Assembly (NCBI GenBank): GCA_013166775.1
Contig: JABLTJ010000003.1
Location: 32,001 to 96,000, forward strand
Length of the DNA stretch: 64,000 nt
DNA from: Promethearchaeati archaeon
GTDB taxonomy: Archaea; Asgardarchaeota; Heimdallarchaeia; Heimdallarchaeales; Heimdallarchaeaceae
Reading direction: 5' to 3'
Made by a program: the position numbers and the translations under genes
The notes under the pieces: generated by a model
What the model was told of the DNA's origin: nothing
The model's input: the letters and a program-made list of their open reading frames with translations, nothing else
The model's database searches: none
Shown: positions 54,741 to 63,141 of the stretch, in pieces
How positions within the stretch are numbered: the stretch's first letter is position 1
Layout: the number at the start of each line of letters is the position of its first letter

Positions 54741-54841
54741 TTCGATTTTACTCCTATGAAGTCCTTTTTTTCGAATTCATTTAAAAAAACTAACATTGCG
54801 TCATAAAAAAATATGAAAAGAGGAAAAAAAGAAAAAAATGA

Positions 54842-56173
54842 TTAGTATTTTGTTATTTTTAACCTTGATTTGCATGCTGGACAATTCCCATTTCCAACAA
54901 TCCATTGATAAAGATGATTCTTATGAAATGCAATATCACATGAAGGACATCTGATAAGATGCTCTTGATTGTCAATGATTTGTAAGCAGATAGAGCAAGT
55001 TACCTTAATCTCATCAGAAGTTTCAACATTATAGTCTAAAATCTTTTCTGCAAAATTAACACCATAAACTTGGGCTGGTGAATATTTTGCTCGTTGTTCT
55101 TGCATTTGATAATACTTGTCTGATGGCAGAACTACTGTTGAATGTAAATTCATTCTCTTCTTCTTATAATTAACTCGAATCCCAGTAACGACTATTACAA
55201 TGAATATAAATGAAAAAATTGCAAGGATTACTATCATTATAATAATCAAGAGATTAGGAATTGGAGGTGGAGGAGGGGGGGGTATAAAAGGATCAAATAT
55301 TGTCCAATAAAATGAAGGAGTTGATCGTAGAGAATCAATAGGGATATCATTTATGACTTGATTACTTTTCCTTAAGAAAATCCTTCCAATATTTTCTGTT
55401 TGATAGTGATCATAGAAAATAGAACACTTAATCTGAGTACTGTTGCTATAATCATCGGTGTAGAATCTTAGTTTGTACCAATGTTCTTCAAACAAACCTT
55501 CTTCAGTAATGATCTCCACTAATTCTAAATCACTATAAGAAAAGTTACCTGAATATATAACAATAGATTGATCTAATTCGTTGTAGATTTCACAAGTATA
55601 GTTGAATGAAACAACATTTCTTGTTGCTAAATGTAAAACGATCTTTTCAATAGATAAGTAGAACTCCGCATTACGCTCTACTCCAAAAAATACATTATCA
55701 AAAGCATTAATATGGGTCTCATATGTCCAAACAGGATAGTCGTCTGTTAAAACCAACTCAACATTAATTGAATCTACTTTTAGAGAAGAGAATTTTATCT
55801 GAATTACTCCATCCAACTCTATTTCTGAAGTGAAGTGATGAATTGATGTATCTCCTGAAAGAATCAACCAGCTGTTTAGTGTGCTATCATTTACATCAAA
55901 GATTAATTCAATTAATAATCCTTTATAACCATCACCAAACTCAATCCCCCAACTGTTGCATTGAATTGAGAACACAATTATCTGGTTGCTAACTGATACA
56001 TAATAAGAAGTCTCATTTAGATCTGAATCCACTCTCAATGAAAAATTGGTTTGAGTTTCATCAAGCAATATTTCACTTGAAAATACATCGTGACTGATTA
56101 AAGGGAGCATTATCAATACTATTAGAAAAAGTGATGGAAAAAAGATAAAGAGCTTGTTTCTTTTCATTGTCAT
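54842..56173 (-). CDS. Single-pass membrane protein with a cytoplasmic RING finger (putative E3 ubiquitin ligase)
   Basis: Signal peptide, ~290-aa ectodomain, PPPPPPP, TM helix, then CSIC..CPSC..FHKNHLYQW..CPAC. The ATG at 56173 overlaps the upstream TGA. Confidence 0.85.
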   Translation of the reverse strand: MTMKRNKLFIFFPSLFLIVLIMLPLISHDVFSSEILLDETQTNFSLRVDSDLNETSYYVSVSNQIIVFSIQCNSWGIEFGDGYKGLLIELIFDVNDSTLNSWLILSGDTSIHHFTSEIELDGVIQIKFSSLKVDSINVELVLTDDYPVWTYETHINAFDNVFFGVERNAEFYLSIEKIVLHLATRNVVSFNYTCEIYNELDQSIVIYSGNFSYSDLELVEIITEEGLFEEHWYKLRFYTDDYSNSTQIKCSIFYDHYQTENIGRIFLRKSNQVINDIPIDSLRSTPSFYWTIFDPFIPPPPPPPIPNLLIIIMIVILAIFSFIFIVIVVTGIRVNYKKKRMNLHSTVVLPSDKYYQMQEQRAKYSPAQVYGVNFAEKILDYNVETSDEIKVTCSICLQIIDNQEHLIRCPSCDIAFHKNHLYQWIVGNGNCPACKSRLKITKY

Positions 56174-58305
56174 CACATTCGTTTTCTTCTTAAGATGTAA
56201 GCTAAAGCAAAAAGACTGAAAAGAGTAAAACTCCAAAGAAACGAACTGTTTTCTGCATAATAATGACCAGAGGGTTCATTTAGATCTTCATAGTTATACG
56301 ATATTTCTATCTCTCCGTAGTGATATATAGGATAGATTAAGACATAGCACTTTTCATCTGGTAGTACTACTTCTGAATAACCGCTAATTAACAACTCCCA
56401 ATTAGATGCATTAAAAACATAGATTTTTGTTTCAACTAATACAGAATCTGCTAGTATACTTCTACTTCTTTCCTCACCACTTTTGTTATCAATCTCTAAT
56501 AGAACAACATCATCGTATTCAAGGATACACATTTTTTCTTCAGCAAAATTGATGCTCTCTAATATTTGACTACTCACCGATACTCCAGTGTATTCTGCAG
56601 CTAGTAGCTGAATTTTGAAAACATGTCCAGCTGGAACGGTTATAGCAATTGAATAACAGTTACTTTCACTTTCTACTATTGCTGATAAATTCAAATCAAG
56701 CACTACCAAATCGAAAGCATAATCTAAGTTTTCTGATAATACAATTAAGAATGAATCATCAGTTTGATGACCCTTGATAATCATCATTATGTTTTGTTCA
56801 GGTATTAGTGTAACTTCTTGTCTTTTTCCAGATTCTAAGGTAGAAAACTCTTCCTCATCAGTGATTTTGATACTTTGAACTGTTGTAGTTATCTCGTTAC
56901 CCAACCAATCTTTGGTATAAATTTGATAGAATATTTCGCTAGTAAACAAGTCGTATGGTATAGAAAGCAAATATAGATCCTTTTCTACCTCTGTTCCATT
57001 TGAGATCAACCAAAATCCGTTCTTTTCCATTTTATAGTAAATCTCAACATAAGGTACTCCAGTAACATCTTTAACCTTACAATTAACATTCAGGAATCTT
57101 TCATCTGTAAATATGTCCACACTAGTATAAACCCAGAAATCTATTTCTGGAGGAAGATCATCTATTAGTACAGTAAACGTTTCAGTCCGATATTCTCTTA
57201 CATCAGCATCATTTAGATGACTCAAAACAACCTTAATCTTCAGATCCAATTCTACTGCATATTGTTCTACAAGCTCACCTATAATAAATGGTAAATCACT
57301 TGTTTGAAGTTCACCATCACCGAGTCTGATGTATGTTCCTCCAGTCAACATCGCTGCAGAATGTAATTGTTCAATAGTCTTATCATTAGAACTTGTAGCA
57401 ACTATTGAGCAGATTATATATCCTTCTTCAGAGAAATTTGCATACAACTCATACAATAAAGGTCCATCGTAATCAGCTTCCAGTGAATTGGGTGGTACTT
57501 CTAATGGACCGTCACCTATAATCTCTCCTGTATCACATGGTTCATCAGTGATCAAGGTCAGAAGCTTGACTGAATTATCTCTCCACGATAAGTAATTTTG
57601 TGCAACCCACAAAGCGTCTCCCCAAGGCTCATATCCTCCAGCTGCTGTAGTTGCTGAGAGTACATTTACTATGTGTTGAAAATCATTAGTTAAGTCATGT
57701 ACCAATGCTGGATTGTTATAGGGATCTTGCATTGGAATATCATAATCCCCTCCAAAGAATACCAATCCAATTCGTATGTCTGGAACTGTGTCCTCAAGTT
57801 CTTCGATAACTTCAATTAAATCAGCTTTTAGAACATCAATTTCGTCCTGCATGGAACCAGAAATATCTAAGACAATAGCAACATCAATTGGATCTCCAAC
57901 AACTGCTTGACTTGGAACAATATCTATAGTATACTCATCTGTTATCCATGATTCTTCAGGATCAAAGATATCTTTACTCGAAGTAAAATTATCGGCAAGT
58001 AAACCAAAATCATTGGTTTCAGGAAACATTTCTAATAATCTTAACTGTTGCTCTGAATAATTGGTTAAGTTAAAACGCACAGAAAATGAACCACCTGGTA
58101 AAATGCTGGGTATTTTATCCTCTCGATGCGAGTCGATGCTAGGAATCATTTCAATTGTTACATTATCCAATGGATTATTCACTAGGCTAGGAACAATAAC
58201 CGTTGTTGAATGACTGTTCTGTTCCCCAAAAACAGTTGCACTTGATGTAAAAAATATTCCAAGCACAAAAACTGCAATCAGTATTTCTTTTCTTTTCAGA
58301 TTCAT
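56173..58305 (-). CDS. Secreted, surface-anchored von Willebrand factor A domain protein
   Basis: Signal peptide, DVAIVLDISGSM (MIDAS), GGYEP, LITDEP; C-terminal TM followed by RRKRM. Confidence 0.9.
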   Translation of the reverse strand: MNLKRKEILIAVFVLGIFFTSSATVFGEQNSHSTTVIVPSLVNNPLDNVTIEMIPSIDSHREDKIPSILPGGSFSVRFNLTNYSEQQLRLLEMFPETNDFGLLADNFTSSKDIFDPEESWITDEYTIDIVPSQAVVGDPIDVAIVLDISGSMQDEIDVLKADLIEVIEELEDTVPDIRIGLVFFGGDYDIPMQDPYNNPALVHDLTNDFQHIVNVLSATTAAGGYEPWGDALWVAQNYLSWRDNSVKLLTLITDEPCDTGEIIGDGPLEVPPNSLEADYDGPLLYELYANFSEEGYIICSIVATSSNDKTIEQLHSAAMLTGGTYIRLGDGELQTSDLPFIIGELVEQYAVELDLKIKVVLSHLNDADVREYRTETFTVLIDDLPPEIDFWVYTSVDIFTDERFLNVNCKVKDVTGVPYVEIYYKMEKNGFWLISNGTEVEKDLYLLSIPYDLFTSEIFYQIYTKDWLGNEITTTVQSIKITDEEEFSTLESGKRQEVTLIPEQNIMMIIKGHQTDDSFLIVLSENLDYAFDLVVLDLNLSAIVESESNCYSIAITVPAGHVFKIQLLAAEYTGVSVSSQILESINFAEEKMCILEYDDVVLLEIDNKSGEERSRSILADSVLVETKIYVFNASNWELLISGYSEVVLPDEKCYVLIYPIYHYGEIEISYNYEDLNEPSGHYYAENSSFLWSFTLFSLFALAYILRRKRM

Positions 58306-58870: not shown

Positions 58871-60168
58871 ATGAAAAAAGTAAGTTCAATTCTTATTTGT
58901 TTTCTAATTCTATTCAACTTAAACATACTACTATGAACTGTGAAGATTTCAATATCACTAAAAGAAATGCTCTCTTCTGTACTGGGACATATGAAATCGG
59001 AGGAGATGGAGAACCCGATAATGCAATTGATTGGATAAACATAAACGAAGCGTTTACTAGCTATTCATGGTTAAAAAATAACCATGGAAATTATAAACTA
59101 GCAATCTTGGATACTGGATTAGATGAAGGAACATTTGTTTATTTCAGAAATAAGTACTCATCATCTTTGCTAAATCTTCGTCTTTTTAATGCTAATGGTC
59201 AAGAAGTTCAACCATATGATGCTATAGATTATGTTTCGGAATTTCATCATGGTACCTTTGTTACAAGTATAATAATACAATTACTAGAAAGAGATTCTCA
59301 CAATGTTAATGCACAAATTGATGTATATGTGATTGCTGATTCCGATGGTGATTTTGATGAAGATATTATGTATGATCAACTTAATAGAATTAAGACTTGG
59401 AATACTCAGAATCCAAATAATAGATATAAAGTTATTACCACTGCTTATAGAGATTCAAAGACTAGTGAACCAAGCTATACTTCACTAATTAACCAGCTTG
59501 TTAGTAACCAGAACTGTATATTCATAGCAGCATCAGGGAATTATGTTTATGGTGATCTTGAACATGGTACAGATCCAGACGACGAAAACTGGGGAAGCTA
59601 TCCTTCGAAACTACCTAAGGTGATAGGAGCAGGAGGAATATATGGCTATAACGTTCCAACAGAATACAGTAGCAAAAAAATAAATCGAATGACTGTACAG
59701 TCAGCATTTAGAAAACCTGAATTTAAGACAGGAGGTTACTGGCTTGGAAGTTGTTACAAACACAATGCACCTCTTTCAACTGCTGGAGTAGAATTAGCTG
59801 CTCCCGGATTTAAGATTGAAGGTTTCATGGATAAAGATGGTTTGGAAGGGGTAGAGAACTATATAGCTACCGGAACAAGTCTTTCAGCCCCTCAGGTAGC
59901 AGTAGCAGCTTATCTTGCAGCAAGAGCTAAATATTACTTGGATTCGTCTGATCCTTTGACTTATGATGACTTTTATGCAGCTATAGTTCAATCATCAGAA
60001 AATGATCCAAGTGGTAGATATAAGTCAACATACGACAAAATAAGGCATGAAAAAGTTGGAATACCAACAGCTAACCTTGGTACATATACAACTTATTTCT
60101 CATACAGAGTCGGGTATGGTTCTTTAGATGTACATGACATGATAGAATTTATAACTGATCTATCCTAA
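58871..60168 (+). CDS. S8 subtilisin-like serine protease; signal peptide out of frame
   Basis: ILDTG, HHGTFV, AASGN, GTSLSAP triad. The ATG at 58871 encodes MKKVSSILICFLILFNLNILL* in a different frame from the catalytic ORF (58897..60168). Confidence 0.85.
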
Positions 60169-62938: not shown

Positions 62939-63141
62939 GGTAATCCCTTTCGCTAATGTAGAATCATTATACAGTTGTTTTTCTCGTTTATAATCATTTC
63001 CAAGAATCAAAAATCCTCACACTTATTATTATTAAATTACTATTACCTTACTTTACTGCCCTTAATTGATATTTGCTTATACATCTCAAAATATCGATAT
63101 ATTCCGATATCCTTATATGCGTTGATGAGAAGACTCAAGCA

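Follow-up and report, generated by a model that had tools for sequence, protein, structure and literature searches.

Adjacent genes for a vWA surface protein and a receptor-shaped RING protein in a Heimdallarchaeaceae archaeon

The gene pair and its junction

The DNA considered here is a stretch of 64,000 nucleotides of contig JABLTJ010000003.1 (assembly GCA_013166775.1; referred to below as the window), and the subject is a pair of adjacent genes within it, of which the first encodes a predicted surface protein with a von Willebrand factor A (vWA) domain and the second a predicted membrane protein with an extracellular domain and a cytoplasmic RING finger. As judged from the database names of the orthologs, the genome is that of a Candidatus Heimdallarchaeaceae member, an Asgard archaeon, and its assembly comprises 3.85 Mb at 33% GC with a completeness of 88.7%. 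Both genes lie on the minus strand according to the list of open reading frames (ORFs) and the sequence itself; the first-pass annotation of this DNA had given no strand. Gene 1 (58305..56173, stop codon TGA at 56175..56173) translates into a type-I membrane vWA protein of 710 aa (P0001) and gene 2 (56173..54842, stop codon TAA at 54844..54842) into a type-I membrane RING protein.

The two genes meet within 56165..56178 of the minus strand (GTGATGACAATG), a segment that holds the TGA of gene 1, an ATG overlapping with it (56173..56171) and a second ATG at 56167..56165. The plus strand reads CATCA at 56171-56175, which on the coding strand is TGATG, the stop codon of gene 1 and the first ATG sharing one A. 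This TGATG had been pointed out in the first-pass annotation and is present in the coding-strand sequence; it had also been proposed to couple the translation of the two genes, and of this proposal the tight junction stands, but the overlapping ATG is probably not the start that is used, as judged from the starts of the orthologs. The second ATG lies 5 nt past the stop of gene 1 and opens the frame MKRNK..., and most gene 2 orthologs start with MK..., 4 nt downstream of a vWA TGA that is itself part of GGTGA. In more distant orthologs the vWA and RING genes overlap by 4 nt (ATGA), and over the analysed orthologs the junction ranges from this 4-nt overlap to a 7-nt gap, being 4 nt in most, with the TGA often embedded in a GGTGA that resembles a Shine-Dalgarno (SD) sequence. 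The 3' end of the genome's 16S rRNA (GGAUCACCUCCU) carries UCACC (anti-SD), which is complementary to GGTGA. Since the orthologs start there and GGTGA can pair with the UCACC of the 16S rRNA, the second ATG is probably the real and homologous start of gene 2, and the overlapping start within TGATG is probably unused. Gene 2 encodes 443 aa from the overlapping ATG (P0002) and 441 aa from the second, the latter being the length in the public gene call (P0003). The start of the longest ORF, a TTG at 56236, was rejected because it sits within gene 1 and the orthologs begin at the junction. With either start (-1 to +5 nt) the vWA and RING genes are a tightly linked operon.

Transcription in archaea is terminated by oligo-T tracts. 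Directly after the stop codon of gene 2 the sequence contains a T-rich tract (54790..54841, minus strand) with coding-strand runs of T7, T7, T4 and T7, which is likely to be the archaeal terminator and is predicted to mark the end of the operon. A scan for bacterial-type promoters and terminators stayed below the expectation from shuffled sequence, such a scan not being applicable to an archaeon.

Architecture of the two predicted chains

The chain encoded by gene 1 begins with a signal peptide (aa 1-27; 58225..58305, this and all following feature coordinates on the minus strand), which consists of a basic n-region and a hydrophobic helix (aa 4-26) and leads up to an S-S-x-x-V-x-G site. S22 and G27 of this site are invariant in 12 orthologs, and cleavage would occur at the conserved V-x-G. 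Next come an N-terminal beta-sandwich (aa 49-129; 57919..58161), the strands of which are placed by the AlphaFold2 (AF2) model with a predicted local distance difference test score (pLDDT) of about 78-91, and the vWA domain (aa 140-351; 57253..57888), delimited by Pfam, alignment and structure. The vWA domain contains the residues of a metal ion-dependent adhesion site (MIDAS), namely D147-x-S149-x-S151 at 57853-57867, T219 and D254. Two membrane-proximal beta-sandwich domains follow (aa 354-480 and 494-672; 56290..57246), modelled with a pLDDT of 75-94 and matched by no Pfam family, and the chain ends (aa 686-710; 56176..56250) in a transmembrane (TM) anchor, helical in the model over aa 689-709, with a basic tail of five residues (...RRKRM). 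The mean pLDDT of the model, including the signal helix, is 82. The vWA assignment draws on Pfam scores of 28.3 bits for VWA_2 (cut-off 27) and 25.3 bits for VWA (cut-off 23.8) and on the superposition with solved vWA structures (VIA-align Z about 18, rmsd, that is root-mean-square deviation, 2.4-2.8 over about 175 residues). While the orthologs are only 33-76% identical, D147, S149, S151 and D254 are invariant among 36 sequences and T219 is at least 90% conserved; the hydrophobic anchor and the K/R tail are conserved in the same set. The cytoplasmic tails comprise 4-10 basic residues and contain Lys in 35 of the 36 cases, a single ortholog having Arg without Lys (RNRRR). By its sequence, gene 1 encodes a type-I membrane protein with a complete MIDAS metal site, and the signal peptide, MIDAS vWA domain and C-terminal anchor described on first pass are borne out by topology, Pfam scores and MIDAS conservation.

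How close is this chain to integrin beta? Foldseek lists the pilus adhesin PitA, integrin-beta headpieces and ANTXR2 at the top. Like integrin beta and ANTXR2/CMG2, gene 1 would expose a MIDAS vWA domain on beta-sandwiches outside the cell, followed by one TM helix, and like integrin beta it is paired with a second type-I chain. VIA-align gives a Z of about 18 for integrin beta (aa 99-382) and equally for TFIIH p44, ITIH1 and Rpn10; the integrin-beta matches reach into the N-terminal sandwich (aa 99-135), as they might if the vWA domain were inserted in a hybrid-like sandwich in the manner of a beta-I domain, but in Z they tie with plain vWA matches. Membership in the integrin-beta family was rejected, as the Pfam model Integrin_beta stays below its cut-off (22.3 against 24.8 bits), covers aa 138-192 only, and the structural Z ties with that of generic vWA domains. 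Pfam reported four vWA-type models only and no PSI or EGF domain. In addition, integrin beta carries an NPxY tail, whereas the tail of gene 1 is RRKRM, five residues with no NPxY, and the partner in this family is not a propeller, unlike that of integrin. On sequence and model the chain is integrin-like in layout only. An 'integrin-like' Asgard family has been described that sits next to tubulin/FtsZ genes (PMC9258230) and is set apart from the present pair by this gene neighbourhood.

The chain encoded by gene 2 has a signal-type N-terminus, which forms a signal helix in the AF2 model, followed by an ectodomain of two jelly-roll beta-sandwich modules (aa 38-297; 55283..56062; strands at about aa 41-270 with a pLDDT of about 76-93). 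A Pro-rich stalk (aa 298-306, P7-I-P; 55256..55282), in which Pro7 occupies aa 298-304 (55262-55282), leads to a TM helix (aa 308-332; 55178..55252) with a hydropathy peak of 3.59, modelled as a helix over aa 308-343. The KKKR stop-transfer sequence behind it agrees with the positive-inside rule. The cytoplasmic linker (aa 333-391; 55001..55177) contains the residues Y364-x-P366 and F374 (in the region of 55066-55084), which are invariant columns in 35 sequences. The Y-x-P of the linker is retained in the most distant members and matches no known motif. The model has a mean pLDDT of 74.8, with low confidence in the Pro-rich stalk, and the orthologs are 28-81% identical. The first-pass order of signal peptide, ectodomain, Pro7 stalk, TM helix and RING holds as a topology and Pro7 is present in this protein, but the Pro7 run itself is not conserved in the orthologs, in which the stalk is Pro-rich only. 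N-glycosylation sequons occur at about twice the expectation in both ectodomains of the pair and are absent from the cytoplasmic part, a distribution that lends weak support to the predicted topology.

The ectodomain of gene 2 stands alone. A profile search against 1.84 billion protein representatives returned 18 proteins, none longer than 468 aa, the full-length ones (403-468 aa) all having the same architecture, and found no relatives outside the family itself. Pfam and NCBIfam contain no family for the ectodomain, nor does the Atlas, where the feature scores of at most 0.84 are at noise level, and Foldseek gave generic beta-sandwich matches only (E about 1e-4, TM-scores below 0.25). The jelly-roll fold of the first module comes closest to PirA, p24 GOLD and PPC/collagen-binding domains, with Z values of 9-10.8 that are only modestly above background. 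From sequence searches and the model, the ectodomain is best described as an orphan, family-specific double jelly roll. A common origin with the ectodomain of gene 1 was considered and rejected, as BLASTP found no similarity between the two.

The RING finger (aa 392-435; 54869..55000) is defined by the zf-RING_2 score, a genome search and its invariant ligands. Throughout the 35 sequences the eight ligands C393, C396, C409, C412, H417, H420, C431 and C434 are invariant, and so are P432 and W424, the latter being the conserved Trp of the first-pass annotation. I395 is at least 90% conserved and is hydrophobic (Ile/Val) in the three most divergent members, and K435 is at least 90% conserved in 14 aligned orthologs, being Arg in one. 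Pfam zf-RING_2 (PF13639) scores 29.7 bits with the whole protein and 34.3 bits with the domain alone (cut-off 27.3), and a genome-wide search with the same model returned 33.9 bits at the same coordinates. In the AF2 model the finger is beta-beta-alpha at a pLDDT of 81-88, and its helix (aa 418-428) is placed as RING domains have it. Among solved structures 24 relatives were found at E <= 0.01, every one of them a RING ubiquitin ligase (E3), namely Arkadia, RNF165/ARK2C, EL5, listerin, RNF24, RNF38, RLIM, AMFR, ZNRF3 and the Arabidopsis AT5G66160 chain. The ligand arrangement is a variant one, since ligands 3 and 4 form a C-x2-C knuckle and ligand 6 is His, unlike the canonical RING-H2 order C-C-C-H-H-C-C-C; in the alignment with Arkadia C412 stands opposite C3 of Arkadia and the His of position 4 is lacking. 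In the RING E3 of Caldiarchaeum subterraneum ubiquitylation was lost with the mutation I30Q and impaired with W58A or R69A (PMC5654768); the counterparts of these residues in gene 2 are I395, W424 and K/R435. As far as sequence can tell, the finger is RING-type, with E2-contact residues and a linchpin Lys/Arg, and it would be expected to have E3 activity.

A PHD-like finger, which the first-pass annotation had named as an alternative, was tried and rejected. The PHD model (PF00628) reaches 14-17 bits against a cut-off of 24, whereas zf-RING_2 passes, and no PHD occurs among the 24 solved relatives, which are RING-H2 E3s. Furthermore, ligand 6 is His, C431 is preceded by G-N and not by Trp, and the Trp lies four residues past ligand 6, as in RING-H2.

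The ligand set C-C-C-C-H-H-C-C had been called unusual. Within this genome it is not, as His or Asp/Glu at ligand 6 is the norm, being found in most of the 16 RING ORFs. Twelve of these 16 have predicted TM segments, and in this archaeon a RING seems as a rule to be anchored in the membrane. The RING gene of one ubiquitin cluster (C102:24400-24993, 197 aa) also encodes two to three hydrophobic segments. Another RING protein, encoded outside the window (G000:C1:180982-183957; L038:5983-8955), has 991 aa and combines a Dna2-like PD-(D/E)XK nuclease, an SF1 helicase (AAA_11/AAA_12) and a C-terminal zf-RING_2; ORFs of about 1000-1070 aa in congeners that end in a RING match may be its orthologs.

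Conservation, loss and other partners

In 19 of 24 congeners the full-length orthologs of both genes, with 35-51% identity, lie side by side in the same orientation, and the pair is likewise adjacent in the genus-level outgroups (L033, L035 and L079), which share a 4-nt overlap and the same downstream synteny of AsnC-type domain, Cdc6/Orc1, a 151-aa gene and AMP phosphorylase. The conservation of the gene pair, a point raised on first pass, extends in this way beyond the genus. Even the most divergent ectodomain relatives (L087 and L088) still have the RING; in L088 the upstream gene is a vWA gene, and in L087 the upstream gene cannot be named on so short a contig, only its end being present, which shares 4 nt with the RING gene. 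The parts of the two proteins have evolved at different speeds. In a comparison with a genus-level outgroup the identity is 70-73% for the housekeeping neighbours, 34-36% for the vWA protein and 27-28% for the chain-2 ectodomain, but 60% for the RING domain, and on these sequence comparisons the extracellular parts are fast-evolving and the RING output module is constrained. In the genome itself no other adjacency of vWA and RING genes was found among 5 VWA_2 and 16 RING matches, the upstream side of one 708-aa TM-RING gene (on C35) lying off its contig.

The five congeners lacking the pair are of different kinds. One has a contig break, with a RING end 88% identical, one has a clean deletion, and the three others are genomes with completeness values of 72%, 76% and 88%. 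In the clean deletion both genes are gone and a 26-aa relic of the RING 3' end (77% identical) is left beside Cdc6 (L086:5894-5971; G013:C115). The closed genome of Ca. Heimdallarchaeum endolithica (CP084167.1) has kept the synteny, but close to a transposase a deletion has taken out the vWA gene as well as the part of the RING gene that encodes the signal peptide. The remaining RING gene (L031:7968-9212) is open over 403 aa with an intact finger, and its frame opens 11 codons before the Met; the ParA operon described below is gone too, and a DDE transposase lies 1.7 kb off. This locus is probably the product of a recent deletion.

Two other Heimdall families (g17 and g14) also have homologs of the vWA protein, retrieved by a profile search, which measure about 710 aa and share its C-terminal anchor. 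In g17 a protein of about 1010 aa composed of signal peptide, ectodomain, TM helix and RING is encoded directly downstream of the vWA gene at all five loci inspected, its RING chain being different from gene 2. In g14 the vWA homolog adjoins, at four of the seven loci inspected, a gene for a protein with signal peptide, WD40 propeller and TM helix, which ends in a tail of about 220 aa without RING. These propeller proteins have about 780 aa and a 7-bladed WD40 domain predicted to be extracellular (L072:7985-10318, L081:8960-11296, L071:8783-11107, L078:8544-10952); an extracellular WD40 propeller combined with a vWA chain would amount to an integrin-like layout. Since the partners in g17 and g14 differ, the vWA chain is the constant element and the second chain lineage-specific, and as the g14 partner has no RING, the vWA chain does not need a RING partner as such.

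The neighbours of the pair are an AsnC-type regulator domain, Cdc6/Orc1, a subtilase, an orphan and a nucleotidyltransferase. Between the vWA gene and position 63073 lie four genes, for an S8 subtilase (58897-60168), a 464-aa orphan, the nucleotidyltransferase and a 210-aa orphan. In three distant lineages a three-gene operon encoding a protein of about 117 aa, a ParA/MinD-like ATPase and a protein of about 455 aa is oriented divergently and lies directly upstream of the vWA gene (L033:420-2922, L035:3437-5936, L088:266-2780).

A proposed receptor with a ubiquitin ligase as its output, and the alternatives

Asgard archaea encode ubiquitin, E1, E2, small RING proteins and the ubiquitin-binding complexes ESCRT-I/II (endosomal sorting complexes required for transport). 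In the genome analysed here ubiquitin is encoded twice, once with the ending GG-F, and there are four E2 or UEV-like genes, of which a single one has an HPN..C motif, and three ThiF-type E1-like genes above the Pfam cut-off, two of which are clustered with ubiquitin and E2 or E2-like genes (C27 and C102). Candidates for the components that would work with the finger are the E1-like genes at C102:26511-27785 and C27:10243-11247, the E2 genes at C102:21170-21697 and C1:94816-95316 and the ubiquitin gene at C27:11404-11652. Genes for a UEV/Vps28-like protein (C27:8753-10159) and EAP30 (ESCRT-I/II) are found on C27 near its ubiquitin and E1 genes, and the vWA-RING pair is encoded apart from both clusters. 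The ubiquitin system invoked on first pass is in consequence found in the genome itself, with ubiquitin, E1, E2 and ESCRT-I/II genes. In eukaryotes ESCRT is recruited by ubiquitylated transmembrane proteins (PMC9192718).

Gene 2 has the outline of known receptor-type ligases, ZNRF3/RNF43 and the PA-TM-RING proteins (RNF13, RNF128/GRAIL, plant RMR), which likewise consist of signal peptide, ectodomain, single TM helix and cytoplasmic RING of the RING-H2 family; the first-pass comparison with the RNF43/ZNRF3/GRAIL topology is upheld, and the RING of ZNRF3 is itself among the solved relatives of the finger. ZNRF3 and RNF43 work with a co-receptor. For RMR, PMC12552968 describes a type-I topology, a domain in the lumen and a RING-H2 with E3 activity. 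Unlike in PA-TM-RING proteins, the ectodomain of gene 2 is the orphan double jelly roll and not a PA family of Pfam, and unlike in the eukaryotic receptor ligases ligand 4 is Cys and ligand 6 His, the partner is a vWA/MIDAS protein of the same operon, and the host is an archaeon with no known endomembranes.

Within the archaea the closest point of reference is srfp of Candidatus Caldiarchaeum subterraneum, an experimentally active RING E3, the description of which remarks on a displaced C3/H4 and an extra Cys (PMC5654768). Like gene 2 it contains an archaeal RING-H2-type finger, and it works with eukaryote-like E1, E2 and ubiquitin; srfp is small and encoded within a ubiquitin operon, whereas gene 2 encodes a chain of 441 aa with type-I membrane topology, most of it ectodomain, and is paired with a vWA gene. 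The combination of vWA and RING-type E3 in one prokaryotic neighbourhood is also found in the bacterial vWA-MoxR 'FtsH ternary' conflict systems, which include ubiquitin-like (Ubl) conjugation (Kaur et al. 2020, PMC7159879). Those systems hold a MoxR ATPase, a JAB peptidase, effectors and Ubl/E1/E2 in the operon, none of which adjoins the present pair, and the proteins of the pair are predicted to be secreted and membrane-anchored, unlike theirs. A reading as a defence system was rejected, since PADLOC gave no match and no MoxR AAA+ ATPase or effector genes are adjacent.

What, then, could the two proteins do together? We put forward that they are two chains of one cell-surface receptor with a RING E3 as its inner output, a reading to which we give about an even chance of being correct. 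Chain 1 would stand almost wholly outside the cell, with its vWA/MIDAS adhesion site on a stalk of beta-sandwiches and only the five-residue basic tail inside, and chain 2 would add the fast-evolving double jelly-roll ectodomain, one TM helix and the strongly conserved cytoplasmic RING. The ectodomains would associate, and it may be that one of the invariant acidic residues of chain 2 (D108, E166, D255 or D280) completes the metal site of the MIDAS; once joined, they would bind a ligand outside or a second cell. The RING tail could then recruit a ubiquitin-charged E2 from the genome's own ubiquitin system and ubiquitylate membrane-near lysines in its own linker, in the tail of the partner or in neighbouring proteins, and ESCRT-I/II or the proteasome of the same genome could serve as readers of the ubiquitin mark. 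It could be imagined in this way that a surface contact is converted into ubiquitylation; formation of the heterodimer, choice of the substrate and regulation by a ligand would all be parts of such a chain of events.

Several observations weigh against this proposal. The second chain of g14 has no RING, the ligand arrangement of the finger in gene 2 deviates at ligands 3-4 and 6, and the tail of the vWA chain cannot be the universal substrate, as one ortholog has no Lys in it. Joint loss of the two genes, moreover, is weak evidence of an interaction, since adjacent genes are lost jointly for trivial reasons.

The main rival, which we consider rather improbable, is that chain 2 is a dedicated turnover ligase, a constitutive E3 that recognizes the vWA protein by its ectodomain and TM helix and ubiquitylates the Lys tail, by which the adhesin would be removed or degraded. 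ZNRF3 and RNF43 act in this way on Frizzled and MARCH ligases on surface receptors, and the relationship to the ZNRF3 RING, the presence of ubiquitin and ESCRT-I/II in the genome, the tight operon with its jointly lost genes, and a Lys within 4-10 residues of the membrane in nearly every vWA tail fit such a role. Lys-rich stop-transfer tails, however, are to be expected anyway at 33% GC, the exceptional tail (RNRRR) offers Arg only, and it would be uneconomical to couple the synthesis of a protein to that of its destroyer in equimolar amounts.

Distinctly less probable still is an adhesion complex without any ubiquitin output, in which the finger would be a structural or docking zinc module, either PHD-like or a tether to a cytoskeletal or ParA-type partner. 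Ligands 3-6 are spaced C-x2-C-x4-H-x2-H, as they are in PHD and RING-CH fingers and not in canonical RING-H2, a conserved Y-x-P...F motif precedes the finger, and the divergent operon beside the pair in three distant lineages encodes a winged helix-turn-helix protein, ParA and a membrane protein. Set against this are the Pfam scores given above, the modelled helix typical of RING domains, the position of the Trp, which in PHD fingers would lie two residues before ligand 7, and the list of solved relatives, which contains neither PHD nor any other non-E3 finger. Because the E2-contact Ile and Pro are conserved, together with the linchpin Lys/Arg and even in the most distant members, a finger without E3 function is the less likely choice.

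A last alternative is that the two are independent surface proteins which are simply co-expressed, their adjacency reflecting shared regulation or the timing of secretion or glycosylation. This would agree with the other neighbours of the vWA homologs in g14 and with the lack of sequence similarity when the chain-2 ectodomain is compared with the C-terminal domains of chain 1. It is very unlikely, however, because gene order and junction persist down to 25-28% ectodomain identity and a vWA gene has become paired with a TM-RING gene a second time in g17, with another RING chain, and in addition the ectodomain of chain 2 occurs nowhere else in the proteins searched, with the visible upstream gene always being a vWA gene or a gene end.

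Full-text literature searches returned no description of a vWA-RING pair, and the searched literature contained no account of what is ubiquitylated at the archaeal membrane or by which ligase. Read as a two-chain receptor, the pair would be a testable archaeal counterpart of the eukaryotic receptor-type ubiquitin ligases. It offers a concrete system to reconstitute, in which a conserved operon encodes a receptor-shaped RING protein with a short cytoplasmic tail together with a defined extracellular partner, the cognate E1, E2 and ubiquitin genes are at hand in the genome, and three RING residues of gene 2 match positions known to matter in another archaeal RING. Should the finger be active, the ectodomain-TM-RING design of the ZNRF3/GRAIL/RMR type would be present in the closest archaeal relatives of eukaryotes, by inheritance or by convergence. 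A wider and decidedly speculative extension, to which we assign a low probability, is that Heimdallarchaeia possess a family of two-chain receptors built from a vWA/MIDAS chain and a lineage-specific second chain, be it jelly-roll-RING, large ectodomain-RING or WD40 propeller, and that in the RING versions binding outside the cell leads to ubiquitylation of membrane proteins and their sorting by ESCRT-I/II. If true, this would constitute a prokaryotic forerunner of both ubiquitin-dependent receptor down-regulation and integrin-like two-chain adhesion, predating the endomembranes of eukaryotes.

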